A stretch of DNA of 64,000 bases, taken from IMG/VR virus record IMGVR_UViG_2703718775_000013, one strand, 5' to 3'. The DNA is from a virus. Its lineage: Duplodnaviria > Heunggongvirae > Uroviricota > Caudoviricetes. The position numbers and the translations under genes are program-made. The notes beneath the pieces are model-generated. The model searched no databases. It was not told the origin of the DNA and saw only the letters and a list, made by a program, of their open reading frames with translations. Shown here piece by piece: positions 4,273-63,934 of this stretch. Numbering within the stretch: the first letter of the stretch is position 1; every line of letters begins with the position of its first letter.

Positions 4273-4289
4273 AAATTTATTAGAGCAAT
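4273..4289. promoter_or_regulatory. C1 repressor operator-like site (perfect match to reverse complement of ATTGCTCTAATAAATTT)
   Basis: AAATTTATTAGAGCAAT read directly; sits at the head of the minus-strand leader/tRNA/ban operon, analogous to the P1 ban-operon operator. Confidence 0.7.
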
Positions 4290-7200
4290 ATACCCAAAAC
4301 GTCATGAGCTACACCTCGAGTGTCCCCCTTACAAGACACAGAACGTCTGGCAAAAAGAGGTTCCACTCTGAAGCCACTGTCATGATAAAGCTCTCTGATG
4401 TTTGGCGCGCCACTGTTAGTAATGAGAACCTTTGCACCTCGACGATGAGCATCCGTCAACAGAGACACCAGGCGTTTTTGCTCTTCAAACTTAAAGTCAT
4501 GACCGGAATAGTTCGTGAATCCCTCTGTATTTGGAAGCGGTTCATACGGCGGATCGCAAAAGATGACATCTCCTTCTCCGGCAGCTTCAATCACCGCTGC
4601 AAAATCACCGCATACAAACTCAGACCGCCCTTCCGCACCGAGGAAGGCTTCCATCTCCTGTAATGGGAAATACGGAGTTTTATACTTCCCATAACCGACA
4701 TTGAACTCACCGGCCTGGTTGTAACGCGTCAATCCGTTAAAACAATGTCGGTTCAGGAACAAAAACGCCGCTGCGCGATGTAAATCATCATAGACTTGTT
4801 TGTTAAACGCATTCCGTACTGCCAGGTATCCTTCCTGTGTGTTGTAGTCCTGGAAGAAACGATGTGCCAGAGTGATAAGTGAATGCGCCTCGCGTTGCAG
4901 AGTCTTGTAAAAGTTAATCAGGTCAGCATTCACATCATTTAGCAGATTTTCCTGGTATCCGGCATTCATGAAGACAGCTCCGCCACCAACGAAAGGTTCA
5001 ATCAGGCGCTTCCCTTCTGGCAAATAGCGAAAGATTTGTTCCAGAACACCAAATTTTCCACCAGCCCATTTGAATATGGACCGTTCGAATTCTGCCGCTG
5101 GTTTAACTTTTCGCTCTTTTGTTTCACTTCCTTCTTTCTGCCGACATACGGCCTTAGTAATCCGATCGCCAATCCAGCGCATTACTGGTATTGCCATACT
5201 ATTGCCGATCGCTTTGTAACGCGGTCCGTCAGCTGCAAGCATTGCGGCCTCTTCTTCGCTTAAATCTGGATAGTGATTGTGCAGATATGCCAGTTCATCT
5301 GAATTAACTTTTTTACGCTTTTCCGTAGGGATCAACGTATGCCAATCAGGAAAACCTTGCAGCCTTTCACATTCGACAGGGGTAAGACGGCGCATTCTAC
5401 CGTCGCCGAGCAATACAATTGGTGCTTCATGGTTACATGTCAAAGTTGGTGCCGAATTATCGGTTTTTATCTCAGCCCCTCCTTGCCCATGTGCCATGGC
5501 AATTATGTTTGTATCATCGCAAGTTCTGATAGCGATGTTTGAAGTATATCTGGTAGTTTCCTTCCCCTCGCCTCTGCTCGGCGCAATATTCCGGCGCACG
5601 CCTTCGAACTCAAAAAGTACCGTTGCGGGATCGAGATCTGTTCGAGCACTTGCGACAACAAACACGCGTCGGCGTCGTTGTGCCACTCCGAAGTATTGGG
5701 CATCAAGGATTCTCCAGGCCACTTTTCGCTGCGGTCCATAAATACAACCACACTGCGGCCACTTTGGAACATGGCAACCGGTTTTGCCATCCCACCGCCA
5801 GAACGCGTTGCTTTTTCCTGATTCAGGTCGATCACCTGGTTCAAATGGCACATCTTCTCCAGCCAATCCGGCAAGGAAACATCCGAAGGCGTTATCTGCC
5901 GATGACAAGACTCCTGGGACATTTTCCCAGACGATAACGGCTGGTTTGAGAAATGACTCAGCCCGTTTGTCGTCAATTGCATTTGCAAGCTCCACATACT
6001 TTAAAGTTAGCGCGCCACGCTCATCATCAAGCCCACCACGTAATCCCGCGATACTGAATGCCTGACAGTTATGGACCACCGCACCATTGAGGATATAGGA
6101 ATGATCACCTTCGACTTCTATGTTGTATACAGTATCTAGGCCTACCGATTTAAACTCTTTGACTGTTCGTAAAAGCATTCCATGAGCCAATCTTGATTTA
6201 CGTGACAATTTCTGCGGGCAGATTGTTACCTGATAATAATTCCGTTGATTTACCACGCGATCCTCGATCACTTTTTTGGGCTCAACTTCAATAAAGCTGA
6301 CCGAAGAAACATAACCACAAGTCTGTGACAACCCCGCAACGCCCCAAGCAAGCGCAGAACTAACACTATTAATTCTAAATCCCGCTTTACCACTTGGTGT
6401 CCCATCAGTATCAAGATAGCCTTGTAAAAACACATGACGCAATGGATGCGACATCACCCATGCAGGGATACGCTTAGCATGGCTTAACTCGCCAAAATGT
6501 TCATTAAGCCAATTGGCATAACACGTATCATTCAAGGTTACTTTGATGCTCCCTCGGATTTCGCTTGCCACGGAAAATATGTTTTCTGGTATGCGGCAAT
6601 GAAACTTTCTCAATTTCTGGCAATTTATGCCAAAAACAACCGCCTTCTTAGATTTACCTCTCCATCTCCTAATATATCCATCGCCAACATAAGCGCCCGC
6701 AAGATACATAGCCTGTTCTTCAGACAAGAACCGAGAACAAATATCTGGAAATGCAATATTGAAATTAGTTAGAGCGCACCATTGATATCCCGGCATATCA
6801 CATGCTGCTCGCCATTCCGGTTCAGACAACAACTCTCTCTTAAAATATGTGCCATTTTTCCGGGTGTTTTGGGCTTTCCACCGAACAGCCAGGAAGGGAT
6901 GGTCATTGGTTGTTCTTATACCTAAAGGCTGCCCAACGGCATTAAGTAACCCCGTATTAGCTATTTTTGAACCAACTCTTTTTACTTGTTGTAACCGCCC
7001 GAGATGACTGACTACGTAATCACCAGGGCAAACATTTTCTATTGGTTTATAGCCATTTTTACAAAGAACCATATGCCCCGCGGTAAAACATGGTGTTCCC
7101 CCGACGAGCACGTCAGGGGATTCGATTTCCCCAGCCAAGACTTTTTTGGCAAGTTTTTTCATGTCGCCAAGGTTGGCAACATGGGGCCAGCGGAGCGCAA

Positions 7201-7321
7201 GAACGGCCGATGGAAAAGGCTCGATTTCAGCAAACCACGCCGGACGCATACCCAACGGTTCCCAGGCAATACTCGCGGCTTCAATTCCACTGCAAACAGA
7301 TCCATAGCACAGCTCTTTCAC
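4280..7321 (-). CDS. dmt: bifunctional DNA methyltransferase: N-terminal C5-cytosine MTase (interrupted by an intein) fused to C-terminal Dam-like N6-adenine MTase
   Basis: 1013-aa ORF. C5-MTase motifs: GGTP|...|CQAFSIAG (split motif IV), VIVWENVPG (ENV), QRRRRVF, GNSM. C-terminal domain has FxGxG-like EPFVGGGAV and DPPY. Start ATG overlaps rdgC stop (ATGA). Confidence 0.85.
6068..7090 (-). other. intein with LAGLIDADG homing-endonuclease domain (residues 78-418 of Dmt precursor)
   Basis: Starts with Cys (CFTAGHMVL, block A), block [11 protein letters not shown], two LAGLIDADG-type motifs [11 protein letters not shown] and [11 protein letters not shown]-terminal [21 protein letters not shown] followed by +1 Cys; excision rejoins GGTP + CQAFSIAG. 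Confidence 0.8.
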
Positions 7322-8223
7322 TGCTTAGCCTCTCCGCCAAGGGCATTTACCAGAGCATCAACCAGGCACGAAATTTCACTGGTCAACAGGAAGAAATCTG
7401 CGTCCAGTCGCTGCGCAACATCTTCACTATCAATATCAGAGTTCTGCTCAAGCAATTCATCCGCAAATTTGACGCTGGTAAGGCTGAAGTTATGGTCCAG
7501 TGTAAATTTAATGCGGTTCTGCCAGTCGAGTGCCAACTTAGTGACGAGCTTGCCAGCTTCCAGGTGTGTGGAAATTTCATCGCTTCCCAAATCCTGCTTT
7601 TTCACTCGGGCAATACCGCCATCCTCAAGCACTGCCTTAAGTTCTGCCGCATCCCCCATTTGAAATCCCTGTGGAGCACTACCATCACGTACCCAGTCGG
7701 TCAGCGTTAATTCAATGGGATTTTCAACACTCAGGGAAACAGCAGGAAGAGAACCCAGAGACTTACGCATAAGCGCGAGCATATCCTCTGCCTGCCGCGC
7801 GCTGGCATTGATATAGATACGTTTAGTTGAACCGTCGTAGATCGCCTGGATAACAGAAAACTTTGAAAAAGCCCGTGGCAGAAGAGAATGCAGAACTTCG
7901 TCTTTCAGGGAGTCCTTCTCTGTTTTCTTCAGTTTACGCGCTTGTTCTTGCTCAAGTTTTTCAATTTTTTCTTGAATAGCTCGCTGGATAACCGGCGGGG
8001 GAAGAATTTTTGTTTCGCGCTTTGCTTCAACAAGGATAAAACCATTTCCATGCATAGCGATAACTTCAGAATTATCACCAAATGGCGATACAAAACCGAA
8101 CTTGGCCATATCCTGACTACCGCATGGCGTGAAAAGGATCATTTTCTTTTTATCTTCTAAGTCGGTCAGATCCGCCTCACGAGAAAGTTTATAAATAGTA
8201 ATGTTTTTCCAGTGCTTAAACAT
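7318..8223 (-). CDS. rdgC: recombination-associated protein RdgC homolog
   Basis: From ATG at 8223: [16 protein letters not shown]...[17 protein letters not shown]...[24 protein letters not shown]...[30 protein letters not shown], collinear with E. coli RdgC; upstream ORF stop overlaps its start. Confidence 0.8.
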
Positions 8224-8572
8224 GTTGTAACCCTTGAATATCAACCACAGAAAGCTCGTCTTTGTAGAAAAAGGCCAGGTTGTGGCACCCCCTCGTTTGA
8301 GCGTATGAGCTGGGACCAATTTCGTTCTTCCAGACAAATGGCTTCAAATCCGTACGGCGAAGCATAAAAACGCGATTTATTCCGCTCTGATTCCCAATGA
8401 GGCAAAAGCCTTCTTTCACCTTGATAGCCTGCAAGTTGTCGAGTTCACCGCTGGTTACACGGCTATCGAACTCTTTGCGGCTTATTAGCTCCATCTGCAT
8501 CTGACGACTCCAAACAAATGCCCATTGAAGGGCGATGGCTGAATGGTACCGAAAATACGACATAAAAAACAA
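8216..8572 (-). CDS. hypothetical protein (first gene of rdgC-dmt operon)
   Basis: 118-aa ORF, stop overlaps rdgC start (translational coupling); start may be ATG at 8572 or 8563. Confidence 0.5.
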
Positions 8573-8588
8573 TATTTATTAGAGCAAT
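8572..8588. promoter_or_regulatory. C1 operator-like site (16/17 match)
   Basis: ATATTTATTAGAGCAAT at the 5' end of the minus-strand operon and in the divergent intergenic region. Confidence 0.6.
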
Positions 8589-8669
8589 TTTGCGATAAGT
8601 AAACGCCATACAGACCACAAATAACCTAAGTTAAAATAACGAAAATCAGAGCAAATAATTGGTGATGGC

Positions 8670-8954
8670 GTGGCAAGCATTGCAACAAAAGACAGCATTT
8701 GTTCGGGGCACGGAGGATTCCCATCCAGGCCTCCTGTAGAGAGTGAACCACTACTTAAAGTCAACGGAGTCGAAGTGTTAGTTGATGGTAAGCAATATGC
8801 ACAGCATACCGATGGAAACAGTACGCACGGTGGGCAAGCTATATCAACCAGGGCATGGTTTACCGTCAATGGTAAAGGGATCGTATGCGTTGGTGACCCT
8901 GTTTCATGCGGATCTACCGTAGCGTCCGGAGACGGCCTGGTTCAGGTAAGTTAG
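8670..8954 (+). CDS. PAAR-like small protein (possible spike-tip protein)
   Basis: 94-aa ORF with Gly/Cys/His pattern CSGHGG...VNGVEVLVDG...THGG...CVGDPVSCGSTVASGDG reminiscent of PAAR-repeat proteins; assignment by motif only. Confidence 0.4.
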   Translation: MASIATKDSICSGHGGFPSRPPVESEPLLKVNGVEVLVDGKQYAQHTDGNSTHGGQAISTRAWFTVNGKGIVCVGDPVSCGSTVASGDGLVQVS

Positions 8955-8962
8955 GAGATATC

Positions 8963-9751: not shown

Positions 9752-9790
9752 CAAAGGACTTCATTGATAATTTTTCTTCAGGAGGAAGAC

Positions 9791-10379: not shown

Positions 10380-10390
10380 AAGGGATTTTT

Positions 10391-10783
10391 ATGTCTGATA
10401 AAGTAACAGTAAAGCAAACTATCAACAAAGCGACTTCAATTTACAAAATTGAGCACATCACTGTTGGCAAGCCAGGATCTGAACAATACCGTCATGCTTT
10501 CGAGCTTGCCGATCAGCTTGGTTTAAAACACCCGGATTGCATCGAGCATGTATTTCCGACCTATGCTGATGAGCAATGTACTCATGTTCTTACCGAAGAG
10601 GATTTTTTCAGCACTGAAGAACGAGAAGGCGTTGATCGCTGCATTGGTGTGATTTGCTCTTCAGTGAGTTATGAGTTATTCCCTAATGTCCATGAAAATG
10701 GTGGTATTGGATACCAATTCCTGTACGAAGGCGATGAGCTTAAATGTTATGAACATGGTCTTCTTATCGAAAGCGTAGAATAA
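10391..10783 (+). CDS. hypothetical protein
   Basis: 130-aa ORF with RBS-like spacing, followed by hairpin plus T-run. Confidence 0.6.
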   Translation: MSDKVTVKQTINKATSIYKIEHITVGKPGSEQYRHAFELADQLGLKHPDCIEHVFPTYADEQCTHVLTEEDFFSTEEREGVDRCIGVICSSVSYELFPNVHENGGIGYQFLYEGDELKCYEHGLLIESVE

Positions 10784-10905: not shown

Positions 10906-10936
10906 CGCGCCATTTCTGGCCTGAAATGGGATCAAC

Positions 10937-11058
10937 ATTGACTATACGCGATTTTATGTTGACTGTGCACGATTTATTGTTGACTGCACGCGATTTATTG
11001 TTGACTATATGCGACAGAAACATTGACTGTACGCGATTTTAGAGCCTGACTATTCACA
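10937..11058 (+). repeat. origin iterons (five to six direct repeats of about 21 bp, TTGACT(A/G)T(A/G)(C/T)(A/G)CGATTT)
   Basis: TTGACT motif recurs at 10938, 10959, 10980, 11001, 11023 (21-22 bp phasing) immediately upstream of repA. Confidence 0.85.
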
Positions 11059-11116
11059 GTTGTTGATAACTGCAATCCAGATGACGCCAGGCCGCGCCAC
11101 ATATGGAGAAACCACG

Positions 11117-12001
11117 ATGCTGGAAGAAAATAAAGGCTTCCTTAGCGTTGAAGAAGTTGCAGGAAATACAGGAGAAATCCACAGCCTGAAACCCAATAAC
11201 AATAGCACTATACAACCCATTGCTTTGTTGCGCTTAGGTGTGTTTGTGCCAACCTTAAAATCTACCAATGTGGCACTACGTCGCGGATCGTCAGTTACTA
11301 CAAACACAACGAACGCAACCGAAGAACTATCAAGCCTCAAAATTGTTGAGCAGGAAGGCTATGAGGGAATTGAAATTCATGGTCCACGCCTGGATATGGA
11401 TACTGATTTTAAGGTGTGGGTGGGCATAACCTCCGCGTTGTTTGACTACGCACCTGATGATGACGGCATAATCACCCTGCCATTCTCCGAGTTTGCCGAT
11501 CGATGCGGCTATCCACGTAAGCGCCTTTCAAAGGCGTTCCGTAAAAGTATTGATGACTCTCTGACACGCATTCAGCAGACAGTTGTCAAATTCCGCTTCC
11601 CGGCGGCAAAAGGTCATCTCAATAACATTAACGTCAACTTGTTGGCATATAGCAGCCTGAATACCGAGCTTGATGTTATCGAGATCCAGCCGCAGAAACA
11701 GCTATCTGAACTTTACTATGTTGACTATAAGCGAATCCTGAAGCTGAAGATGCTGGATAAGCTCGGGCGCAAAGAGACGGCCAAGGTACTGTATACATTC
11801 TTTGAGGCTCTACCCGCCAACCCGGCACCTGTCAGCATTGAGCGCCTTAGAGCAAGGCTTAATCTCAAATCATCCGTTAGCGTGCAAAATAGCGTTATCA
11901 GAAAAGCCATGAAAGATTTGGAAGCTATTGAATATCTTAAATTTTCAGAGATAAAAAACGGCAGGAAAATCGGCTTTCAGATCCATAAGCGCAATCCATA
12001 A
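11117..12001 (+). CDS. repA: plasmid replication initiator RepA (iteron-binding)
   Basis: ATG at 11117 with GGAG 9 nt upstream; protein contains LRLGVFVP...HGPRLDMDTDFKVWVGI segment as I recall for P1 RepA; flanked by iteron arrays on both sides. Confidence 0.8.
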   Translation: MLEENKGFLSVEEVAGNTGEIHSLKPNNNSTIQPIALLRLGVFVPTLKSTNVALRRGSSVTTNTTNATEELSSLKIVEQEGYEGIEIHGPRLDMDTDFKVWVGITSALFDYAPDDDGIITLPFSEFADRCGYPRKRLSKAFRKSIDDSLTRIQQTVVKFRFPAAKGHLNNINVNLLAYSSLNTELDVIEIQPQKQLSELYYVDYKRILKLKMLDKLGRKETAKVLYTFFEALPANPAPVSIERLRARLNLKSSVSVQNSVIRKAMKDLEAIEYLKFSEIKNGRKIGFQIHKRNP

Positions 12002-12003
12002 TA

Positions 12004-12259
12004 TTGACTATATGCGATAGCGAGAAGTTGACTATAGGCGACATTCGTTGACGCTGGTGGATTTTTGCTGGCGTCAATATTCTGCAAGTCGCTATTGAGA
12101 TGGCTTTTAGGGTCATTTCATCGCGTATAGTCAACGTTTCTCCCGACAATATCTTACATAGTCGATCTTTGGTGGAGTTAAATCGACTACAGTCAACTTT
12201 TGACTGTAGTCACATCGCGCATAGTCAACTATTCACATTAACTTTCGCGCATAGTCAAC
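12004..12259. repeat. incA-like control iterons (about nine copies in both orientations)
   Basis: TTGACTATATGCGA, TTGACTATAGGCGA and reverse-orientation CGCG(C/T)ATAGTCAA copies downstream of repA. Confidence 0.8.
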
Positions 12260-12293
12260 ATTTGCGCGGTTCTCATCAAGCAGTGGTATTGAT

Positions 12294-12629
12294 ATGCAAG
12301 AAGAGAAACAACACTACCTCTACGTTCTGGTGCCGGAGAACGGAGATACTTTTAAAATCGGCATTTCATGTGGTCCATTGGCACGGTTTAAAGGGCTACA
12401 AGTGAGTCCCGATTTTGCGCTTTCACGGGTCTATCGTGGTACGCGTTTGGCAATGGTTAATCTTGAGCGGGCTTTACACGCAACCTTTTTCCCCTGGAAT
12501 GCGCCGTGGGAGAAAAGCGCCGGTGGCGGGCATACTGAATGGTTTACACGAGAGTGTCTTGATAAGGTTTTGGCTCATATCGAATATCTAAATGATATGT
12601 GGGGAGGGATTCTCGAGCGCATTAAGTAG
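12294..12629 (+). CDS. GIY-YIG-like (T5orf172-type) domain protein
   Basis: 111 aa; N-terminal YLYVLVPENGDTFKIGIS followed by conserved R, H and EWF, the pattern of T5orf172/GIY-YIG-like domains; motif-level inference. Confidence 0.5.
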   Translation: MQEEKQHYLYVLVPENGDTFKIGISCGPLARFKGLQVSPDFALSRVYRGTRLAMVNLERALHATFFPWNAPWEKSAGGGHTEWFTRECLDKVLAHIEYLNDMWGGILERIK

Positions 12630-12698
12630 AATGATTTACTTCAGCGTCCAGTAGATGCTGCTCGCTCTTTCGAAAAAGAACTGGATGTTACTTCTATC

Positions 12699-13103
12699 GT
12701 GACTTTCAAAGATGACGCAGGAATGAGGGACGTGGCTTATGTCTCCATATCTGGCTATGAACCGGACGCGATCCGCGCTCAATGTGAATTGCTGAAAGCA
12801 ATGTTTATGCTTCGGACTAAATATCCCTGGGAGACAGGGCGGGTGTGCTTCCCTATGGAAGAGTTAACCGCCACCATTGATTCTCAGCTTTACCACGATA
12901 ATCCAGAGAAGTTTTTTAGCCTTTTAGCCGGTAATGGGCTTAACTGTGTGTCCGGGCTGGGGCGAAGTAGAATCCAACATGCCTCGCTCTTCGGTCCCTT
13001 CTTTTACGATCGACACGGGTACTTTGAGGCTGAACTTCCGGCGCTTACGCGTGCTATAGATACTATCGATTTCGAACGATTATTCGCTGCTCTTAGCAAA
13101 TAA
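12699..13103 (+). CDS. hypothetical protein
   Basis: 134-aa ORF followed by strong rho-independent terminator. Confidence 0.55.
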   Translation: MTFKDDAGMRDVAYVSISGYEPDAIRAQCELLKAMFMLRTKYPWETGRVCFPMEELTATIDSQLYHDNPEKFFSLLAGNGLNCVSGLGRSRIQHASLFGPFFYDRHGYFEAELPALTRAIDTIDFERLFAALSK

Positions 13104-13107
13104 CACT

Positions 13108-13132
13108 GATGCCCCTGAACGGGGCTTTTTTG
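13108..13132 (+). terminator. rho-independent terminator
   Basis: GCCCCTGAACGGGGC hairpin followed by TTTTTT. Confidence 0.75.
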
Positions 13133-13271
13133 TGCCTTTCTTGTAACTCTCAATCGTGCAAAATGAACAAAACATGCAGAGAATGCCATGTACAAGCATC
13201 TACGCATACATTATTATTTTATGCAGCATTTTTAATTAAATTCAAAAATACAGCATAAAGGATGACTTTCG

Positions 13272-21577: not shown

Positions 21578-22042
21578 TTATGTCCCAAGCGCTCTTTTTC
21601 TGCTTTGTTTGAGTGTTCTGATTTTACTGTTATAGGTTACAACATAGGCTGTTTTAAGAAGCCAATAGTCTCTACGTGCGGATAGCACAACAACGTAGTT
21701 TTCACACTCGTTCCAGATTACCCATTCTTCAGTTGGTCCTCGTCTTTCAGACCAACATGATATATCGGAATGGTTATAATTCCTTATCATATGCGCGATC
21801 CAGCGGATCCGCTTACACCGTTCAAGATCAGGTATTCGTTCTTCTTCTATTTTTCCCTCTGATACTAAATGCCAAAATCCGAACTCTTTCCCATCATATT
21901 CCGGTGAATAACGTAATCGAACAGGGAGACCCTTAAACGTTATATTAGAGATTAAAATATCTTCTCTAACAACATCATATACATCGTCTATATACTCTTG
22001 CCAACTTCCATTGAAGTACAATAAATCTGGCATTTGAAGCAT
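21578..22042 (-). CDS. hypothetical protein, translationally coupled partner of upstream DUF3800-like gene
   Basis: ATG at 22042 overlaps upstream stop (TGATG); ORF track alternative start 22057; AT-rich codon usage. Confidence 0.55.
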   Translation of the reverse strand: MLQMPDLLYFNGSWQEYIDDVYDVVREDILISNITFKGLPVRLRYSPEYDGKEFGFWHLVSEGKIEEERIPDLERCKRIRWIAHMIRNYNHSDISCWSERRGPTEEWVIWNECENYVVVLSARRDYWLLKTAYVVTYNSKIRTLKQSRKRALGT

Positions 22043-22746
22043 CAGCGAGCCTCCCACACGAAAATATTAAATTTACTTTCTGTTGGAAGAGTGCTTTTTA
22101 GTAACTCCCTGTTTGTATGTGATTTTATCCTGTTTATGACTTGGATTTTTCCCGCGTTGCTATTCATTCCTCGATGAACGTAGCCTAACGCACCAATGAA
22201 AAGATCCGTTAGCTGCAATTGTTGCACTTCATGAGATCGTATATGTTGAATTCTGTTTATCGACTCATGATTGTAATCATAGCGATCATTGTGAAGAACT
22301 CCTCTTAATTTCTCAATTTTTTCAATACCTAAAGTATCTTTTATATCTAGGTAGATATTGTATGTGTTGTTACTTTCTATTATGTTTTTTAAGACATAAA
22401 AAAACATCTTATAATAGAAAGTATTATGATCTTGATGGAATCGAGCATGGTCCAGTTGCTCTTTATCAGGAACAACAACACCTCTAAAGCGCAATGCTGG
22501 GTTGCTGAAGAAGTAATCTACGACCTCTAAGTAAAATTCAACTTTGGACGCAGATACTTTAGTCCACTTGATTTCGAAATCAGGTTTTAAATTGTGTTTT
22601 AATTTTAATCCCTTGATGTCTCTAGCAATTTTTTTTGTGATAGTGCCAGGACACCAAAGCGCACCCAATACCATGACTTTATTATGATCATTTAGTAGGT
22701 GACAGGATTCATCGCAGAATACATTAAATGTTCTTCGGTTCAACAT
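22042..22746 (-). CDS. DUF3800-like hypothetical protein
   Basis: 234 aa; N-terminal FNVFCDESCHLL and C-terminal QLQLTDLFIGALGYV resemble my recollection of DUF3800 family conserved blocks; GGAG SD 6 nt before ATG; low GC. Confidence 0.55.
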   Translation of the reverse strand: MLNRRTFNVFCDESCHLLNDHNKVMVLGALWCPGTITKKIARDIKGLKLKHNLKPDFEIKWTKVSASKVEFYLEVVDYFFSNPALRFRGVVVPDKEQLDHARFHQDHNTFYYKMFFYVLKNIIESNNTYNIYLDIKDTLGIEKIEKLRGVLHNDRYDYNHESINRIQHIRSHEVQQLQLTDLFIGALGYVHRGMNSNAGKIQVINRIKSHTNRELLKSTLPTESKFNIFVWEAR

Positions 22747-22894: not shown

Positions 22895-22910
22895 GTTATA
22901 ATTAGAGCAA
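22895..22910. promoter_or_regulatory. C1 operator-like site (core ATTAGAGCAAT)
   Basis: Core 11/11 match, flank diverged; lies between repL stop and the AT-rich cassette, overlapping a candidate -10 (TAATTAT) on the minus strand. Confidence 0.45.
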
Positions 22911-22914
22911 TCTA

Positions 22915-24659: not shown

Positions 24660-24676
24660 AAATTTATTAGAGCAAA
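24660..24676. promoter_or_regulatory. C1 operator-like site upstream of kilA-repL (16/17 match)
   Basis: AAATTTATTAGAGCAAA about 70 bp upstream of kilA start. Confidence 0.65.
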
Positions 24677-26331: not shown

Positions 26332-26348
26332 AAATTTATTAGAGCATT
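26332..26348. promoter_or_regulatory. C1 operator-like site at immI promoter (16/17 match)
   Basis: AAATTTATTAGAGCATT at the upstream end of the minus-strand immI leader. Confidence 0.65.
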
Positions 26349-39496: not shown

Positions 39497-40074
39497 TGAC
39501 ATTCAGAATGAGTGAACACTCACGGACCATAAAAATTTATAATCTACTGACCGGAACCAATGAGTTTATTGGTGAAGGTGATGCATACATTCCACCTCAT
39601 ACAGGTCTGCCTGCAAACAGTACCGATATTGCCCCGCCAGATATTCCGGCTGGCTTCGTGGCCGTTTTCAACAGTGATGAGGCATCGTGGCATCTCGTTG
39701 AAGACCATCGGGGTAAAACGGTTTATGACGTGGCATCAGGGGACTCGTTATTTATTTCTGAACTCGGTCCATTACCGGAAAATGTCACCTGGTTATCCCC
39801 GGAAGGGGAGTTTCAGAAGTGGAACGGCACAGCCTGGGTGAAAGATGCAGAAGCAGAAAAACTGTTCCGGATCCGGAAGGCGGAAGAAACAAAAAACAGC
39901 CTGATGCAGATGGCCAGTGAGCATATTGCGCCACTTCAGGATGCCGTAGATTTGGATATTGCGACGGAGGAAGAGGCATCGTTACTGACTGCATGGAAGA
40001 CATATCGGGTATTGTTGAATCGTGTTGATACAACAGTAGCATCGGATGTTGAGTGGCCAGTCGCCCCGCAATAA
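39496..40074 (+). CDS. U: tail fibre assembly chaperone (U/Tfa family)
   Basis: 192-aa ORF overlapping S stop; the ...[11 protein letters not shown]... segment resembles the conserved N-terminal part of Tfa/U proteins. Confidence 0.7.
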
Positions 40075-40117
40075 AAGGATAAAGCCATCGATAGAAATAT
40101 TGATGGCTTCATGTACT

Positions 40118-40621
40118 CTATTTATACAATACAACACCGCTCTTTTTTGTTATATATGTGCAGTTCGATGGTATATCTTTATTTATAAAAGACATTGCAC
40201 CTATTTTTACATTATCCCCAATTTTACGTGATAATCCAATGATGCAACAATTAGCTCCGATATCAACGTTATTACCAATTTTTACTCTTGAACCAGGCAT
40301 GTCACCATCTACCTGTCCAATGGTAGTATTCTGTCGCAAAACCAGATTTTCACCAGCATCAACAGCAAAATGAACAACAATTCCAGTATGATGGGGAATT
40401 GTTAAACCTTTTCCAATATTTGCGCCCAATCCAATTTCGCAACCAAATCTGTTAATTATATTATTGTTTAACTTTCTGGCTGCTTTCTTATGTAATTTAT
40501 TGCCATTAATATACATTTCATTAGCCAGTCTCCACCAGAAAAGGAAATTCCGATTGCGCTGCTTCTTCTCTCTTAATAGTCGCCAAACATCCATTTTTTC
40601 ACGCCTGATGATTTCAGCCAT
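40118..40621 (-). CDS. hexapeptide-repeat (left-handed beta-helix) acetyltransferase, WcaB/CysE-like
   Basis: Hexapeptide repeats (IGLGANIGKGLTI, VKIGNNVDIGANCCIIG, IGDNVKIGAMSFI); start chosen at ATG 40621 (ORF track gives 40690); very AT-rich context. Confidence 0.65.
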   Translation of the reverse strand: MAEIIRREKMDVWRLLREKKQRNRNFLFWWRLANEMYINGNKLHKKAARKLNNNIINRFGCEIGLGANIGKGLTIPHHTGIVVHFAVDAGENLVLRQNTTIGQVDGDMPGSRVKIGNNVDIGANCCIIGLSRKIGDNVKIGAMSFINKDIPSNCTYITKKSGVVLYK

Positions 40622-41180
40622 CCAATAGCTCAATAGAGCTTTTGAATTCCCGAAGATGACAAAGTGAATAGCTATTAAGTAACATAACATATTGCAACTG
40701 CCTATATTTTTTGGTTTCTATGGTTATATATTGACATTATAATTAAAACAATAATCATCAGTGTGTTACTGCGTTCCTGCTAAACTAAATCAACGCACAA
40801 TGTAAACACAAATGTTAATTTTAAGCTGAGCGCTAAAGGGATGTCAATATTGTATTGATAATGAGTTGCAAGATTGCCAACACTTTCTATATTTTTGGAT
40901 GCAATAATTTATATTTTATCTATTTAGTGTTTCTTTAGACTTATTAAGGATATCATTATTAATTTATGGCTTGCCATTTCTATACATATCTGTTAAAAAT
41001 TTTGACTTGTTTGTTGAAAATAGATTTAATTGATTGGTTTATTTTTTACATGACGCTCTTTAATATAACTTCAGGTATATATAAGCACAATGCATTATTT
41101 CCAGAGGAAATTAACAAAATTGTTAGCTCTTATTTGTTGAGCTTATAGATATTAATTAAGGCCCGATTCCGGGCCTTTCC

Positions 41181-41414
41181 TCATTCCGGCTTTTCGGGAA
41201 ACGTTACTGGAAGGATGGAGGTATCCGTGGATTCGACTTTCTGCGCATAGAGAATCCACTCGGTTAATTTTTGTTTACCCTGAACGGAAATAATGCCTAG
41301 CCGTAACTGTGAGTCCCAGAGCTGAGTTTTATCCCTGACGAGCTGTAGCAGGCTTTGCTTTTCTTTTTCCGCTTGTTGTCTTTGCATGACCGGTTGAGAA
41401 GTTACTTTGCATAC
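41181..41414 (-). CDS. small hypothetical protein
   Basis: About 78 aa from ATG 41414, divergent from lydA; longer ORF-track version would overlap lydA. Confidence 0.35.
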   Translation of the reverse strand, partial: VCKVTSQPVMQRQQAEKEKQSLLQLVRDKTQLWDSQLRLGIISVQGKQKLTEWILYAQKVESTDTSILPVTFPEKPE

Positions 41415-51455: not shown

Positions 51456-51944
51456 TCAAAACGGAATATCGTCGTCAAAGTCCATTGGAGGTTCGTTATT
51501 AGCGTTGCTCTGAGGTTTACCGCCACCACTGTATTGCTGGTGGTTTTGAGGTTGGTTTGATTGCCCCCAGCCATTTGTGGACTGTGAATCGTCGCGACGA
51601 GCGCCGATCATTTGCATGGTGCCGCCCTGGCTGACGATAATTTCCGTCGTGTAACGTTCTACACCGGCGTCATCTGTCCACTTACGGGTTTTAAGTTTCC
51701 CTTCGATGTAGACCTGAGAACCTTTTCGTAAATACTCACTCGCAATTTCAGCAAGTTTTCCGAACAAAACGACTTTATGCCATTCTGTTTGCTCTTTCTG
51801 TTGGCCCGTTTGCTTGTCGCGCCATGATTCATTCGTTGCGATGCTGAGTCTTCCGACCGCGCCGCCATTTGGTATATACCTGATCTCCGGGTCTTGCCCC
51901 AGGGTGCCAATCAGGATGACTTTGTTTACACCGCGTTGTGCCAC
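51456..51944 (-). CDS. ssb: single-stranded DNA-binding protein
   Basis: [30 protein letters not shown]...[33 protein letters not shown]...[11 protein letters not shown], collinear with E. coli SSB including acidic tail. Confidence 0.95.
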
Positions 51945-51964
51945 TTATCTTACCTAATAAAATA

Positions 51965-51980
51965 AAATAATTAGAGCAAC
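51965..51980. promoter_or_regulatory. C1 operator-like site upstream of ssb (core ATTAGAGCAA)
   Basis: AAAATAATTAGAGCAAC about 25 bp upstream of ssb start. Confidence 0.45.
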
Positions 51981-52962: not shown

Positions 52963-55693
<2,731 letters not shown>

Positions 55694-55759: not shown

Positions 55760-58700
55760 ATGAACAAGCTATCTATGGGGGTGTTTCGCTGTTCAAGTGT
55801 CAGCGAAATATTGAAATACATTAGGGCAATAACATCTCACCGAGCGCCGATTAAATACGGCGTGGAAAAGGTGGAAGGCAAAAGCTATGACCGACTGCGC
55901 CGGGAGGCGAATCAGAAGGCGATAGATTTGCTTAATTCACTGGTGGACGGCGCGACACTGACAGATGAACAGCGCCAGATCCTGGCTGGGTACACCGGTG
56001 AAGGCGGCATTGGCGGGTCCGTCTCCGAATATTACACACCAAAGCCGATCGCTGAAGGTGTCTGGGAGATCATGAAGCTCTACGGCGCGGACGTAGGTAA
56101 CACTCTGGAACCATCGGCGGGCACCGGCGTTTTTAATGAGACAAAACCGGTTGGTACGGTGATGACTGCGACTGAGATCAGCAGTGTTTCCGGTCGTATA
56201 AACCAGTTGTTACACCCGGAAGACAGCGTACAGATTTCCCCGTTCGAACAGCTGGCTATAAGCACACCTAACGATTCATTCGACCATGTTGTGGGTAACG
56301 TTCCGTTCGGCGGTCGTGATAACACACGCAACATCGATAAGCCTTACGCAGAAGAAACGGACATGGGTTCTTACTTCATGCTCCGCATGCTGGACAAGAT
56401 AAAGCCAGGCGGATTCATGTGCGTGATTGTGCCGCCGTCCATTGTTTCAGGTTCAAACATGAAGCGGTTACGCCTGCGCCTATCACGGAAAGCAGAATTT
56501 CTTGGTGCCCACCGCTTGCCTACCGGTACTTTTGACGCAAACGGGACCAGTACGGTCGTAGATGTGGTGCTGATGCGCAAACATCCGGCAGAGATGGCTG
56601 AGAAAATCCCCCTGGTGGATGAAAGCACTCTTGAATCAGCAAATGTGCTTTGGCCAACGTTTATTTCTGGCAAGTGGTTTGAAAAGGATGGCCGCCGGTT
56701 TGTTCATGGCACCCAAGAAAAGGGCTTCCGGGGGCGTATTGAGGTTCGTGCCGACGGTCAGATTGATAACCAGGCTCTTAAAGCGAAGCTGATTCATCGT
56801 TTCGAAAGCCGTATCGACTGGTCTTTGCTCGATATGGCTGAACCGTCACCGACCGCAGACGTTGTTGGTGAAGGGGAAATGCGCCTGATTAATGGCGTAT
56901 GGCAAAAATATGCTGGTGGTCGCTGGATTGAAGCTGATGCCGGGAAGGAACTTAAGATCGATGCTGCCAGTTATGGCGCGGATAGCTGGGAGGCTCTTCA
57001 GCGTAACCTGACTACAACAGAAGGCCGTCTCGGCATGACATTTACCCAGATGGCAAATGTCCGCGATAAGTACACCACATCAATCAGCGACGATATGGTG
57101 CAGCTGGTGGACTGGATTAACAGCCAGCCTGAAAAATACCGTGAACGCTTGTATCGCGGGGCGATGATTGGCCGGATGTTAATTGAATATCAGGACATGA
57201 AGGCCGCCGGGCATAGTGCTGAACAAATCGAACAGCAGCGCCTTTCTCTGGTATCCCGTTTGCAGGCAGAGATTGACCGTTTTGGTAACCCCGGTCGCGG
57301 TCCGATAGCGAAATTATCGGGGAGCGGTGCGCGCGCCTGGTTTGCTTTCCGTGGTGCAATTAAGCTGGATGGCACTATTTCTGACGAGCTGACAGGAAAA
57401 CTGGTTACGCATGATTCCAGCGCCAGTTATGACTCCACCAGCTATCAGGACACCCTGCGTTATCTCTACAGTGATCTCACTCGCGATCCAATCCAGCTCG
57501 ATGATTTCCGCCTTGCGTTTACCGGCGAACTGCCAGCCAGTGATGATGAGTTGCTTAATTTATTGGCCAGCACCCCTGGCATTGCGGTTTCACCGTATGG
57601 CGGGATTGTTCCGTTCGCCCGCGCCACCAGCGGCGACATTAACGAGATAGTGGCTCCAAAACAGGAATTCCTCGCCACGCTCCCCGACGGTCCAGTAAAG
57701 AACAACGTCCTTAATCAGCTGGCAGCGATCGAAGAGAAGCGCATCAAGACGCCAGCAGAGAATATCCGCTTTAAGCTCAATAGCCGTTGGTTCGACCGCT
57801 CCGTCATTCTGGAGTTTTTGCAGGAAAACGGCTATCCGGATCTGCGCTATGTGCAGTCAGTGCAGCTGGAAGGCGACGAAATGGTTTCTGACACCTATCA
57901 CGGTGGTGATGGTCTGTTCGTCGGGCACCGATACGGTGTCGTCCAGCGCAAGGATAAAGAAACAGGCGAGATCCGCTACGAGTGGGACCGTAAATCAGGT
58001 GAAAACGCGACCGGGTTCCCGGCACAACTGGAAAAGTATCTCAATGGTGCGCGTATCGGTGGCAAAGATAGCGCGACGGCGAACGGCTACCGCGAGCAGA
58101 TGGCACTGCTTGAGGACCAGTTCAATAAGTGGATCAAGACGCACGATCGCTACGATGAGCTGGTTGCCAAATACAACGATGTGTTCAATAGCAATATCCC
58201 GTATGAACACTCTGGCGATCCGCTTGGGTTGAAGGGATTAAGCGGTAAGCGCCAGCCATTTGATTACCAGAATAGCGAGGTGCGCCGACTGTCCGAAGAT
58301 GGGCGCGGCATCCTGGGCTTCGGCACCGGGCTGGGTAAAACCACGACCGCGCTGGCGCTTGAGGCGTTCAACTATGAGAACGGTCGCTCCACCCGTACTG
58401 CTTATGTAGTGCCTAAAGCAGTGCTGGAAAACTGGTATTACGAAGCAAAAGAGTTCCTGAGTGAAGAGGCATTCAGTAACTACCTGTTCGTCGGTCTTGA
58501 TGTGCTGATGGATGGCGATCAGATTCGCCAGGTGCCGGTGCTCGATGAGAACGGTAAACCTGTTCTTGGTACTGATGGCACTCCAGTTATGCGCGATGCT
58601 CTTAAGCTGGCAGATGAAGCCACTATCACGGCGCGGATGAACGCGATCCCGCACTCAAATTACCGTGCAGTCGTGTTTACCAAAGAACAATACGCCCGCA

Positions 58701-61700: not shown

Positions 61701-62527
61701 CACAGTTTGGCACCATTGGCATTTACAGCAATAAAGCCGAGATCAAGCAGGCAATGGACGCAGCAAGCGCGCGTATCGCAGCAGAACGGGAAGCCAATCT
61801 GAATCATGCAGTCGCCGCACTGACTCAATCGTGGGTAACAGCAATCAGGGAGGCCGCCACCACAGGGAAAATCACACCTGCAATTGCGGATGTCGTAAAC
61901 GACGGCTCTAAATTTATGGATGCCTATCAAATGGATGCGGTGAAGTTGCCATCAGCCTATGGTCAACTCAGCTATCGCATGACCTACAACCTGGTATCAA
62001 TGTTTTCCGACCTTGCCATCCTTGGGCTGGTGGATCTTAACGAGGTTACGCCGGAATTGCTCAGCATGCGCAAGAATCATGTGGAGATATTGCAGAGAAT
62101 TAACACGGTTCTTGCCGGGCGCACCGATGAAGAGAAACAGGCCGACGCTGATCGGATAAACCTGGCCCTTGGCAACATCACGGAGGAAGAAATTGCCGCC
62201 AGAAACGAGAAACAAGAAGAGTTATCATCAATACAGGGTGATGCCACCAGCATAGCTCAGTCTCTTGGTCTGAATTATCGCGTATCCACCGCCGACCTGA
62301 AGATGATGTACGCACCAAAATTCGCCGCTGGCGAGGTATTTGGGCTTCAGGAAGCCTCAGGCATGAAAGGCGTTCTTTTCCGTGCGAAAGACGCAATCAA
62401 GGCGAAATTCGGCGCTCGCTGGCTGCCAGCGAAGGCGAAGAACAGCGATTTCCCGGGTAACTGGTGGATTATCGAGACAAAACACAACGTGGCGGACGTT
62501 CTGGCCGTCATCCAACAATACGCATAA
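55760..62527 (+). CDS. darB: giant antirestriction protein DarB (N-terminal methyltransferase-like region, central helicase domain)
   Basis: 2255-aa ORF; helicase motifs GFGTGLGKTTTALA (Walker A) and ADEGHNYRN (DEAH-like); N-terminal GNVPFGG methyltransferase-like motif; length matches recalled P1 DarB. Confidence 0.85.
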   Translation: MNKLSMGVFRCSSVSEILKYIRAITSHRAPIKYGVEKVEGKSYDRLRREANQKAIDLLNSLVDGATLTDEQRQILAGYTGEGGIGGSVSEYYTPKPIAEGVWEIMKLYGADVGNTLEPSAGTGVFNETKPVGTVMTATEISSVSGRINQLLHPEDSVQISPFEQLAISTPNDSFDHVVGNVPFGGRDNTRNIDKPYAEETDMGSYFMLRMLDKIKPGGFMCVIVPPSIVSGSNMKRLRLRLSRKAEFLGAHRLPTGTFDANGTSTVVDVVLMRKHPAEMAEKIPLVDESTLESANVLWPTFISGKWFEKDGRRFVHGTQEKGFRGRIEVRADGQIDNQALKAKLIHRFESRIDWSLLDMAEPSPTADVVGEGEMRLINGVWQKYAGGRWIEADAGKELKIDAASYGADSWEALQRNLTTTEGRLGMTFTQMANVRDKYTTSISDDMVQLVDWINSQPEKYRERLYRGAMIGRMLIEYQDMKAAGHSAEQIEQQRLSLVSRLQAEIDRFGNPGRGPIAKLSGSGARAWFAFRGAIKLDGTISDELTGKLVTHDSSASYDSTSYQDTLRYLYSDLTRDPIQLDDFRLAFTGELPASDDELLNLLASTPGIAVSPYGGIVPFARATSGDINEIVAPKQEFLATLPDGPVKNNVLNQLAAIEEKRIKTPAENIRFKLNSRWFDRSVILEFLQENGYPDLRYVQSVQLEGDEMVSDTYHGGDGLFVGHRYGVVQRKDKETGEIRYEWDRKSGENATGFPAQLEKYLNGARIGGKDSATANGYREQMALLEDQFNKWIKTHDRYDELVAKYNDVFNSNIPYEHSGDPLGLKGLSGKRQPFDYQNSEVRRLSEDGRGILGFGTGLGKTTTALALEAFNYENGRSTRTAYVVPKAVLENWYYEAKEFLSEEAFSNYLFVGLDVLMDGDQIRQVPVLDENGKPVLGTDGTPVMRDALKLADEATITARMNAIPHSNYRAVVFTKEQYARIPLRDDTVDEHAQDMLYDFVAAGRVASAMDSDSHRKEAARRWVLSEYSDTGTEKAEKYPYFEDMGFDSVIADEGHNYRNSYKNGREASQLAYLPTSAVAQSARDMAIKNAYLMKKNGGRGPVLLTATPVVNTPIDAYNMLSHVLPKEYWQKMGIYGPDDFVKFFGKTRLETVQKISGEVEEKMALVGFENLDALRGIFHRWVTLKTAEDVKDTVEIPELDEHQQDAPLTEEQLAAYEELRQQAEAAAKANNGVTTSVNEDGVIEHEKARPIFSIIRDMDRVCTDMDLYYRRITYRFLPEYADAVQQLADSLPKQATSEDDDSDDSITQQSQYSLIDKGEFIQLQVPEAFEQEVNKRLARFGIDEQTVTHPVTPKYAKLIATLKEFFPEGKQIIFTDEKTQHQKLKRIICNALNLEPSKVGILNAQTVAEAGKTGKKLKAVKPPKELPDEPTDAQIAKYNEQMALYDAYIAQQNEMSLGGLEKIAADFQEGRTPIIICNKKAEVGINLHRGTTDIHHLTLPWTPASIAQRNGRGARVGSNRASVRVHYYCGKGSFDEYRLKTLKRKAGWISDILRSDKSEMENADANDMIEMQMYTAKDDGERLAMMQVQMDKAKAAQRARQKEQATIDLQNYIKAQHAAGEDVEVLTAELERRKAELEKTTADVAKFKQAVMAKAADNADWKARWGSVHHTDRTLLAQYRASLKSAIQRKANISQAISRYEKLLNRTQKAATDIKRLRPLVEDAINKGILDVDPDLVNHASEFLIIGDRSWRVGQYYDCAGDIVRIKSLDFDSQRADVEIIFTFKGTKSGNWDVKTLDKQVDVTPDEDAVMQKISGGVSIAGINDIISCDDFYRFQQRGMIKITDSYGVQTTESGYSIDFVGTYTDPLKHAVYPDRRDGALKSSIAKWVLGMMSEGNNRQVRLAEVFLTELFGSNYGDVIASYGDTLSPEAIQEKIADAIARMPEKTSQGATRNGDSELEVTNAIFGTHEFRASDYEITTAQFGTIGIYSNKAEIKQAMDAASARIAAEREANLNHAVAALTQSWVTAIREAATTGKITPAIADVVNDGSKFMDAYQMDAVKLPSAYGQLSYRMTYNLVSMFSDLAILGLVDLNEVTPELLSMRKNHVEILQRINTVLAGRTDEEKQADADRINLALGNITEEEIAARNEKQEELSSIQGDATSIAQSLGLNYRVSTADLKMMYAPKFAAGEVFGLQEASGMKGVLFRAKDAIKAKFGARWLPAKAKNSDFPGNWWIIETKHNVADVLAVIQQYA

Positions 62528-62560
62528 CAGGAGCGCCCGGTTCGCCGGGCGTCGCATAAT

Positions 62561-63001
62561 ATGGCCACACTATCTGATACAATAAAACCGAATAAAACAT
62601 ATCTTGAGGCGGTACTGCGTACGGCGTTGTTAGGAAAGACAGAAGACGAATACGTTGATTTCTTCCTGTCAGGGCTACGTGGGCGATTACTGAAAAATCC
62701 CCGCCTGTACCGCAGCTATGGCCCATACTGGCCGGAAATTAAAAAATTATTACTGGAGCGCGGTTATGGTAATTTCGGTCGTCTCGTTGACCGTGACGTT
62801 CGCAAAATTTACCGTTATGACCGCCCGGCGCTAACACTCATAGCCGCGACGCTCTACAGCCAGGAGCGTTTTGATAATGGTCAGATATACTCAGCCTGGC
62901 ATTTACTGCCAGTGCCTGAAGAAGTTGACGACCAGGACTATGAGTTTGAGTCTTACGATTTGGAAGTTGAAGCCTTGGCACAGGCTGGAGAGAAAACTTG
63001 A
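62561..63001 (+). CDS. hypothetical protein
   Basis: 146-aa ORF immediately after darB, coupled to next ORF (ATGA overlap). Confidence 0.55.
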   Translation: MATLSDTIKPNKTYLEAVLRTALLGKTEDEYVDFFLSGLRGRLLKNPRLYRSYGPYWPEIKKLLLERGYGNFGRLVDRDVRKIYRYDRPALTLIAATLYSQERFDNGQIYSAWHLLPVPEEVDDQDYEFESYDLEVEALAQAGEKT

Positions 63002-63246
63002 AAAAGCGATACTACACAGTAAAGCATGGGACGCTACGAGCATTACAAGAGTTTGCTGACAAGCATAACGTTGAGGTGCGCAGGGAAGGGGGAAGTAAAG
63101 CTCTGCGCATGTACCGTCCGGACGGGAAATGGCGGACGGTCGTCGATTTCAAAACTAACAGCGTTCCCCAGGGCGTCCGCGACCGGGCATTCGAAGAATG
63201 GGAACAGATCATCATAGATAACGCATTGCTCCTGAATGCGGATTGA
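62998..63246 (+). CDS. hypothetical protein
   Basis: 82-aa ORF coupled to upstream gene. Confidence 0.5.
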   Translation: MKKRYYTVKHGTLRALQEFADKHNVEVRREGGSKALRMYRPDGKWRTVVDFKTNSVPQGVRDRAFEEWEQIIIDNALLLNAD

Positions 63247-63297
63247 TTTATATATCGGGCAGTTGTAGCTGCCCGTTAAATTTTTGCCGCTCTTCAA

Positions 63298-63888
63298 TTA
63301 CACTATATCTTTTACTATAGAATTAGCATCCTCCAGTACGCCAATTTCTTCGATGCGTTTTTTTATTATTAATCGATTTGAAGCAATGATTGTGGACCAT
63401 CTTGTTTCCCAAGCTCTATAAGCATGCCACGAATAACCTAATCTCATTTCTTTGCTCATGTTGGACATTGAGTATTCAACGGCGTCTAAATATTCATTTT
63501 CATACTTAGTTCCACCAATTTCTAAAAGGCTGCCGAAATATATAAGCCATTTTGCAAGCTGCTCGTATTGCTCCCAAGCACCACTCTCTCTTGTTAAATC
63601 TCTTTTTTGTTTTATTATTCTCTTGAAAAAATCAACTACTTGTCCGTCATTCCAGTCGAAACCCTCAGATATAATCGAGGAGGTTATTTGATAGAATGAA
63701 TCTTCTAATCTAAGGTATTCATCCTTATAGTTGAAAGTGCCTGATAAAACTCTTTTTATACTTTGTCTGGCTCTTGCTATGACGCCTTCAATTAACATTA
63801 TGTTAATGCTCAATCTCTTAAAGAAAGAGTCTATTTCGGTGTTGTCAATTACTCGTATTCCAAAACAATAAAAATAATAATCCTTCAT
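63298..63888 (-). CDS. AT-rich hypothetical protein preceded by C1 operator-like site
   Basis: 196-aa ORF, GC clearly lower than backbone; operator-like sequence 30 bp upstream. Confidence 0.55.
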   Translation of the reverse strand: MKDYYFYCFGIRVIDNTEIDSFFKRLSINIMLIEGVIARARQSIKRVLSGTFNYKDEYLRLEDSFYQITSSIISEGFDWNDGQVVDFFKRIIKQKRDLTRESGAWEQYEQLAKWLIYFGSLLEIGGTKYENEYLDAVEYSMSNMSKEMRLGYSWHAYRAWETRWSTIIASNRLIIKKRIEEIGVLEDANSIVKDIV

Positions 63889-63917
63889 ATCTTGACTTAC
63901 TTCACTGCGAGAGATGA

Positions 63918-63934
63918 AAAATATATTAGAGCAC
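63918..63934. promoter_or_regulatory. C1 operator-like site (about 14-15/17 match)
   Basis: AAATATATTAGAGCACA upstream of minus-strand gene 63298-63888. Confidence 0.4.

Follow-up and report, generated by a model that had tools for sequence, protein, structure and literature searches.

The window and the C1 regulon of P1

The window, that is, the whole stretch of 64,000 nucleotides analysed here, belongs to a P1-like phage-plasmid. It shares 97–98% identity with the P1 reference AF234172, relative to which its orientation is reversed, and this level of identity is also found across all six operator loci discussed below. The backbone is 98–99.7% identical to that of P1-like phage-plasmids of E. 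coli, among them vB_EcoM-Ro157c2YLVW, RCS47 and plasmids such as NZ_CP027575.1. The G+C content of the window is 0.474. The features that bear on control by the C1 repressor are collected in Table 1, where the positions of the P1 operators are those of the GenBank annotation of AF234172/NC_005856.

Table 1. Operators, operator-like sequences and associated genes in the window, with their P1 counterparts
Feature	Coordinates	Strand	Observations
Obanb (former Op72b)	4262–4278	+	2 mismatches; P1 68678–68694
Obana (former Op72a)	4273–4289	−	0 mismatches; P1 68667–68683, annotated C1 operator
uhr-hrdC(rdgC)-dmt operon, downstream of Odmt	4280–8500	−	Mapped to P1, Pfam domains; uhr start at 8500
Odmt (former Op68)	8572–8588	−	1 mismatch; P1 65145–65161; abuts the Pdmt −35 hexamer
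rlfA-rlfB	21578–22746	−	97% identity to P1; G+C 0.364
Orlf (former Op55), weak operator	22895–22911	−	5 mismatches; exact 17-mer of P1 51575–51591
OrepL (former Op53)	24660–24676	−	1 mismatch; P1 49810–49826; overlaps the PkilA −10 hexamer; kilA-repL
Oc4 (former Op51)	26332–26348	−	1 mismatch; P1 48140–48156; immI operon c4-icd-ant1/2
ssb	51456–51944		Ossb 20 bp upstream
Ossb (former Op21), allele GTTGCTCTAATTATTTT	51964–51980	−	3 mismatches; homologue of P1 21015–21031
Operator-like 17-mer ATTGCCCTAATGTATTT, unannotated	55814–55830	−	3 mismatches; inside the 5′ end of darB
lxc (bof), C1 co-repressor gene	62998–63246	+	Protein identical to P1 Lxc
SIR2-family 3′ remnant	63298–63972	−	CDS nt 634–1308 of a 435-aa gene; 100% identity to NZ_CP027575.1
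Operator-like 17-mer TGTGCTCTAATATATTT	63919–63935	−	3 mismatches; nt 671–687 of the SIR2-family CDS
IS1 terminal inverted repeat	63973–64000	+	27 of 28 bases identical to the end of the P1 IS1 copy

In P1, the C1 repressor binds to asymmetric operators of 17 bp; these overlap or adjoin sigma-70 promoters from which early lytic and accessory operons are transcribed. The co-repressor Lxc makes this binding tighter. C1 keeps ban, uhr-hrdC-dmt, kilA-repL(-rlfAB), c4-icd-ant and ssb switched off in the P1 lysogen, and these operons are released when C1 is inactivated by Coi or Ant. The window includes lxc; the c1 gene lies outside it, beyond its end. In the closest plasmid relative, a C1 gene is annotated at a distance of about 6 kb beyond SIR2, and a relative that matches the SIR2 fragment at 100% identity has an annotated c1 together with Omat, Oref and Oc1-type sites.

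Operators at six loci

The consensus of the C1 operator, ATTGCTCTAATAAATTT, is an asymmetric sequence of 17 bp that is the same in P1 and in the window (PMC8546580). When up to three mismatches are allowed, the window contains eight matches to this consensus, against 0.32 expected, and none out of 100 shuffled sequences contained eight. An earlier note had listed seven operator-like sites in this DNA, and the sequences that it described are present at all seven coordinates; its list lacked two matches, namely Obanb (4262–4278, + strand) and the match at 55814–55830 (− strand).

The matches at 4262, 4273, 8572, 22895, 24660, 26332 and 51964 are positional homologues of annotated P1 operators. 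Moreover, the P1 operators Obanab/Op72ab, Odmt/Op68, Orlf/Op55, OrepL/Op53, Oc4/Op51 and Ossb/Op21 share both their gene positions and their orientation with the window. The 17-mers of Obana, Obanb, Odmt, Orlf, OrepL and Oc4 are identical to those of P1, whereas Ossb is conserved at 15 of 17 positions, with two substitutions (G1 and T14) inside the operator. The window type of Ossb is the minority allele in IMG/VR contigs, being found in 3 of them as compared to 64 with the P1 type; the conservation of Ossb across these 67 viral contigs was discarded as a circular argument, since the contigs had been retrieved by exact operator match. The ban operator is divalent, with Obana and Obanb as inverted, overlapping halves, and Obana overlaps the P1ban/P2ban promoters according to the P1 annotation. 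By transfer from the same annotation, at a local identity of 97–99%, a sigma-70 promoter would adjoin or overlap the operator at ban, dmt, kilA, c4 and ssb.

A position-weight-matrix (PWM) scan had been proposed in the earlier note as a check of the listed sites. An independent PWM was built on 12 P1 operators located outside the DNA homologous to the window, of which 11 score 16.4–25.7 and one, Oc1b, is an outlier at 7.9. The seven known monovalent sites of the six loci score 16.0–26.2 with this matrix, with 0.22–0.35 matches expected per 64 kb. In contrast, the match at 63919 scores at a level found at random-expectation frequency. The identity of the listed sequences as C1 operators is upheld at the six loci, which are positional homologues of P1 operators and stand far above chance, but does not extend to 63919, which is intragenic and at chance level.

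Given the identity to P1, the homologous annotated operators and the enrichment of matches, the sites at the six loci can be regarded as C1 operators, and they very probably make up the C1 regulon of a P1-like plasmid prophage, whose AT-rich motif is most likely matched by coincidence at 63919 and 55814, both of which lie within coding DNA. In the element that carries the window, C1 would be expected to bind at these six loci and to repress their operons. The canonical immunity wiring of P1 would then be kept, and the importance of this result is small beyond annotation.

The sites assigned previously to immI, kilA-repL, ssb and ban correspond by positional homology to Oc4, OrepL, Ossb and Oban of P1. 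Two other sites, one in front of rdgC-dmt and one in front of an AT-rich two-gene cassette, had been presented as lying beyond the expected set. The first of them is Odmt/Op68 and the second is Orlf/Op55, which precedes rlfA-rlfB, and the P1 reference carries annotations for both. All six operator loci, including these two, are already known from P1, and control of the P1 methylase through Op68 was reportedly described in 1989. With a G+C content of 0.467, as compared to the value for the window as a whole, the uhr-hrdC-dmt operon is not AT-rich.

Orlf and the rlfA-rlfB cassette

The AT-rich pair, rlfA-rlfB, encodes a DUF3800 protein and its partner, as judged from Pfam, and matches the defence-candidate pair PDC-M04A/B of PADLOC. 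The rlf, sim and res-mod genes have already been described as recent acquisitions of P1 with a low G+C content (PMC6906374). The pair appears as a mobile two-gene cassette, which is present in unrelated viral contigs without an operator and lies behind Orlf in P1-like elements. The proposal that acquired genes have been wired into repressor control gains some support from the low G+C content of rlfAB, its mobility and its position behind Orlf, but finds none at 63919. Orlf/Op55 may place rlfA-rlfB under the control of C1, with the match at 55814 as a possible further and unannotated C1 site, although we regard this reading as unlikely. Were the pair controlled in this way, a candidate defence module would stay off in the lysogen, and only derepression would turn it on.

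The surroundings of Orlf could also point to a different role, in which the site lies between repL and rlfAB as an insulator or transcriptional roadblock and is not a promoter operator. Orlf begins 4 bp past the stop codon of repL, with rlfA following after 148 nt. A simple consensus scan, in itself not decisive, found no promoter-like site within about 150 bp of Orlf in the window, and no terminator-like sequence is seen around it. Furthermore, the −35 region of the PrlfA promoter predicted in P1 is not conserved in the window, conservation covers the 17-mer and 38 bp on its downstream side but not the flanks, which have diverged, and the occurrence of the cassette elsewhere without any operator is consistent with this role. 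A precedent is offered by the repressors of the mycobacteriophages L5 and L1, where one repressor acts on many dispersed asymmetric operator or ‘stoperator’ sites, some of which lie away from promoters. PMC1934351 cites the P1 operator paper in the context of stoperators. Nonetheless, both the protein and the motif are unrelated between L5/L1 and P1, and the proposed roadblock role of a P1 site such as Orlf is a purely positional argument. In addition, the five mismatches of Orlf probably entail a low affinity, and while the 17-mer is identical in 14 out of 15 P1-like viral contigs, the remaining one carries a core mutation. On balance, a roadblock at Orlf seems rather unlikely.

Operator-like matches inside coding DNA

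By mismatch counting, two unannotated matches with three mismatches, at 55814 and 63919, are found in the window against 0.32 expected, which is mildly above chance (Poisson P about 0.04) and leaves a small probability of weak binding at either site. The second of them had been thought to precede an AT-rich gene at 63298–63888, but no complete gene is present there. This ORF of 196 aa starts at the internal Met240 of a SIR2-family CDS of 435 aa, which is annotated as an intact CDS of 1308 nt in NZ_CP027575.1, and the 17-mer corresponds to codons 224–229 (L-C-S-N-I-F) of that CDS; the site is intragenic and not part of a 5′ regulatory region. The CDS is interrupted by IS1 after nt 633 (codon 211), at 63972/63973, with the break falling within the SIR2_2 domain (aa 117–252). 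Homology to all intact plasmids ends at 63972, and the IS1–SIR2 junction is absent from the phage, plasmid and E. coli collections searched. When the final 760 bp of the window were compared with phage records, megablast homology stopped at about 63255, and a distant search of these records with the same 760 bp gave no match, while the intact SIR2 gene was found in the plasmid and E. coli collections. The SIR2-family gene is a candidate defence gene that replaces res-mod of P1 and that IS1 has inactivated. The possibility that the 196-aa ORF represents a diverged mat with Omat upstream was also considered; it was rejected because the ORF aligns at 100% with the 3′ half of the SIR2 gene and because intact relatives carry mat and Omat farther along.

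In the earlier note, the site was taken to suggest repressor control of an acquired AT-rich gene; a genuine but weak C1 operator at 63919 could act on that gene or on transcripts leaving IS1. The core TGCTCTAAT is indeed intact, the site and the ORF downstream share one orientation, and one allele, L007 (TATGCTCTAATATATTT), has a higher PWM score of 18.7. However, the window sequence scores 13.2, a value for which 1.2–1.5 occurrences are expected in 64 kb of random sequence, with more in DNA of 34% G+C, and which is lower than the score of every known operator but Oc1b. The alleles of this sequence drift at synonymous positions, with some scoring 12.3 and others below 10. No promoter-like sequence is present beside the site on the − strand, and the DNA that actually precedes the intact SIR2 gene contains no operator-like sequence. 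The site has no counterpart in P1, where res-mod occupies this position. Since it is intragenic, lies in a gene cut by IS1, has a chance score, drifts synonymously and lacks a promoter, the match at 63919 is best regarded as being at chance level, and a genuine operator here appears very improbable.

The match at 55814 is probably a chance match as well. Its PWM score of 16.7 is higher than that of the annotated Orlf, with 0.13–0.24 matches expected per 64 kb, P1 has the identical 17-mer, and the late promoter LPpro is about 65–80 bp away. These observations would fit an unannotated 21st C1 operator, acting as a roadblock or as a looping partner close to where the divergent darB/prt promoters lie. 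Notwithstanding, the curated P1 record bears no annotation there, and position 6 of the 17-mer is a C, whereas T or A occupies it in each of the 20 P1 operators. In a comparison of 29 related contigs, three positions of the 17-mer vary, core positions 5 and 6 among them, at a rate no different from that of the flanks, and its location within coding sequence renders the identity to P1 uninformative. A 21st operator at 55814 seems quite improbable, and chance remains the preferred explanation.

Cargo exchange among P1-like phage-plasmids

The variation among P1-like phage-plasmids consists of swapped cargo in existing C1-controlled operons and hot spots, and not of new operators. Where an AT-rich motif matches acquired DNA that is itself AT-rich, caution is called for, and the match should not be counted as regulation. 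One example of swapped cargo is an SPFH cassette, which the window carries inside the C1-controlled operons instead of the tciABC genes of P1. A second is dmt, which bears an intein in the window, unlike P1 dmt, and owes to it a product length of 1013 aa. A third is the SIR2-family gene, found in place of res-mod between lxc and mat in the window and in E. coli P1-like phage-plasmids alike. Compared to P1, the cargo of the controlled operons in the window also includes an extra tRNA-Tyr.

Relation of the window to P1

Megablast assigns the window to the P1 group (Punavirus), with 99.7% identity to vB_EcoM-Ro157c2YLVW and 97-98% identity, in reversed orientation, to the P1 reference AF234172. 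Unrelated DNA at 10920-13170 takes the place of the P1 repA/oriR/incA replicon segment, and related plasmids are typed by MOB-suite as 'IncHI1B', not IncY, which together point to a replicon swap. A stretch of very low G+C (0.335) without P1 counterpart, at 40000-41386, adjoins the tail-fibre region.

C1 operators and the genes behind them

With regard to sites for the repressor C1, the window is clearly enriched: the consensus ATTGCTCTAATAAATTT, with up to three mismatches, has 8 matches against 0.32 expected, a number reached by none of 100 shuffled sequences. The seven sites listed in an earlier note are all correctly placed, because the scan matches and the sequence at 22895, ATTGCTCTAATTATAAC, were found where it had put them; what it lacked were the second of two half-sites, at 4262, and the 55814 match. 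In the curated P1 record, the annotated C1 operators comprise 20 monovalent sites and, in addition, two composite divalent features, in agreement with the '22 operators' and the same consensus quoted for P1 (PMC8546580). Extraction of these annotated sites and alignment of their flanks to the window indicate that six loci, holding seven monovalent sites, are P1 operators already known. The window contains no new repressor wiring, and the finding is one already made in P1. The two Ossb substitutions are the sole differences from P1 in about 120 bp around the ssb promoter, and the allele is a rare one, present in 3 IMG/VR contigs against 64 for the P1 allele.

Coordinates of P1-homologous segments (direct blastn map), operator-like sites and genes
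Feature	Window	Strand	Consensus mismatches	PWM score	P1 counterpart	Relation to P1
Segment	1-10920				72353-62807	several segments replaced
Segment	13170-29488				61315-45000	
Segment	50470-63244				22531-9752	
Site	4262	+	2	21.9	Obanb (Op72ab)	identical
Site	4273	-	0	26.2	Obana (Op72ab)	identical
Site	8572	-	1	24.7	Odmt (Op68)	identical
Site	11979			11.75		next best in window
Site	22895		5	16.0	Orlf (Op55)	identical
Site	24660	-	1	20.9	OrepL (Op53)	identical
Site	26332	-	1	24.8	Oc4 (Op51)	identical
Site	51964	-	3	17.5	Ossb (Op21)	two substitutions, A1G and A14T
Site	55814	-	3	16.7		
Site	63919	-	3	13.2		
dmt	4280-7321	-				
hrdC	8223					
uhr	8500					
rlfB	22042-21578					
rlfA	22746-22042					
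ssb	51944-51456					

In P1, Lxc stabilises the complex that C1 forms with each 17-bp asymmetric site, binding occludes the promoters that overlap the sites, and Coi and Ant1/2 lift repression. The window carries lxc, encoding a protein identical to P1 Lxc; by analogy, C1 and Lxc would occupy its sites and shut the overlapping promoters.

The genes downstream of the window operators are P1 genes, among them kilA and repL, c4, icd and ant, and ssb. Therefore the site before rdgC (hrdC)-dmt, which had been counted as lying beyond the expected set, is Op68, standing ahead of uhr, hrdC and then dmt and annotated in P1; Citron, Velleman and Schuster reported in 1989 that this operator controls the methylase of P1. 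The AT-rich two-gene cassette, placed likewise beyond that set, is rlfA-rlfB behind Op55.

The dmt product has 1013 aa in the window vs 754 aa in P1, the difference being a clean in-frame 341-aa insertion (6065-7087) with Hint and LAGLIDADG domains. It begins CFTAGH, finishes VVHN followed by Cys, and separates GTPC from QAFS, the two halves of a catalytic motif in the C5-cytosine methyltransferase domain; it is an intein within a C1-controlled phage methyltransferase. Within the ban operon, itself under C1 control, tciA-tciB-tciC are replaced at 1443-2487 by an SPFH/Band-7 protein (275 aa) and an ORF of 78 aa, an arrangement common to RCS47 and Ro157c2YLVW. An extra tRNA-Tyr (GTA) at 3441-3527 lies between tRNA-Asn and tRNA-Thr; in the P1 reference, the tRNAs of this operon are limited to Asn, Thr and Ile2(CAT).

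The rlfAB cassette

The rlfAB pair has a G+C of 0.364; RlfA is a DUF3800 protein, and in PADLOC the two genes strongly match the defence candidates PDC-M04A (2e-95) and PDC-M04B (3e-52). The P1 annotation calls both 'possibly associated with lytic replication', and they are non-essential (PMC10695390). About 65 viral contigs carry homologous pairs (43-77% identity), and rlfAB travels as a unit in unrelated ones of about 30-40 kb. Neither repL nor kilA lies upstream in the five contigs checked, and an operator-like site within 400 bp is absent from all of the contigs. Among 15 P1-like contigs, 14 have an identical Orlf, placed at -165 relative to the start of rlfA, and the other carries the core change C5T. 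The occurrence of such pairs without the operator in unrelated contigs, together with the constancy of Orlf in P1-like ones, makes rlfAB a mobile cassette that sits behind an operator of the backbone. The proposal that acquired genes have been wired to the repressor has some support to this extent, although the acquisition was already described, with rlf, sim and res-mod listed as recent low-G+C arrivals in P1 (PMC6906374); it does not extend to uhr-hrdC-dmt, whose composition is not unusual (G+C 0.467), or to the chance match at 63919. No promoter or terminator is recognisable near Orlf in the window, and flank alignment shows no conservation of the -35 of the P1-predicted PrlfA; Orlf may act by repression, as a roadblock or through looping.

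Matches at or near chance level

The weight matrix (PWM), a check suggested by the earlier note, was built from the 12 P1 operators outside window-homologous DNA, a choice made to avoid circularity. Exact convolution and 300 first-order Markov simulations gave, per 64 kb on both strands, 0.13-0.24, 0.22-0.35, 1.2-1.5 and about 3.1 matches expected at scores of at least 16.74, 15.97, 13.19 and 11.75; with the seven known sites removed, 1, 1, 2 and 3 were observed. These residual matches are what chance predicts, and therefore 63919 matches at random-expectation frequency, the outcome that the earlier note had named as speaking against a site. The standing of 55814 against chance is borderline.

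The site at 63919 had been read as the operator of an AT-rich gene at 63298-63888. P1 homology stops at 63244, the end of lxc (megablast, blastn), and the next 733 bp match several P1-like plasmids of E. coli with 100% identity. In one relative, NZ_CP027575.1, the place held by res-mod in P1 is taken by a 1308-nt 'SIR2 family protein' CDS, flanked by lxc and a mat-like gene; many E. coli P1-like plasmids share this 435-aa gene in the lxc-mat interval. Its product has the defence candidate PDC-S25 as top PADLOC match and resembles ThsA and LmuA too. The window ORF corresponds to residues 240-435 and matched no protein family. Homology to the intact plasmids ends at 63972, and 27 of the 28 bases at 63973-64000 agree with the terminal repeat of the IS1 copy in P1. 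IS1 therefore cuts the CDS after nt 633 (codon 211), within the Pfam SIR2_2 domain (aa 117-252), and has inactivated the gene. Searches of phage, plasmid and E. coli collections turned up no record with this junction.

The 17-mer at 63919 is thus intragenic, spanning CDS nt 671-687 (codons Leu-Cys-Ser-Asn-Ile-Phe). Across four alleles (83-88% identical) its changes fall on synonymous positions and are about as frequent as those of the flanks, the forms TGTGCTCTAATATATTT, TATGCTCTAATATATTT, TGTGCTCTAATATATTC and TGTGCTCTAATATCTTT scoring 14.7, 18.7, 12.3 and <10, respectively. The fragment has 33.8% G+C, so the chance rate of this AT-rich motif rises about five-fold. No sigma-70-like promoter was found on the site's strand, nor does the intact gene have any operator-like sequence in its true 5' region; in the relative with that gene, Omat and Oref, further on, are the closest real operators. 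All this argues for a fortuitous match.

The 17-mer at 55814, ATTGCCCTAATGTATTT, is situated 54 nt inside darB. P1 carries it unchanged, with no operator annotated there. It has C at position 6, occupied by T or A in 20/20 P1 operators, and in 29 related viral contigs three positions vary, including core 5 and 6, at about the frequency of the flanks. It is probably a chance match; C1 binding there, which would be weak, is conceivable and the less likely reading. Unlike P1, which lacks such a site between cre and c8, NZ_CP027575.1 carries a strong operator-like site, ATTGCTCTAATTATTTG (10387-10403, - strand; PWM 22.3), directly upstream of a c8-like gene.
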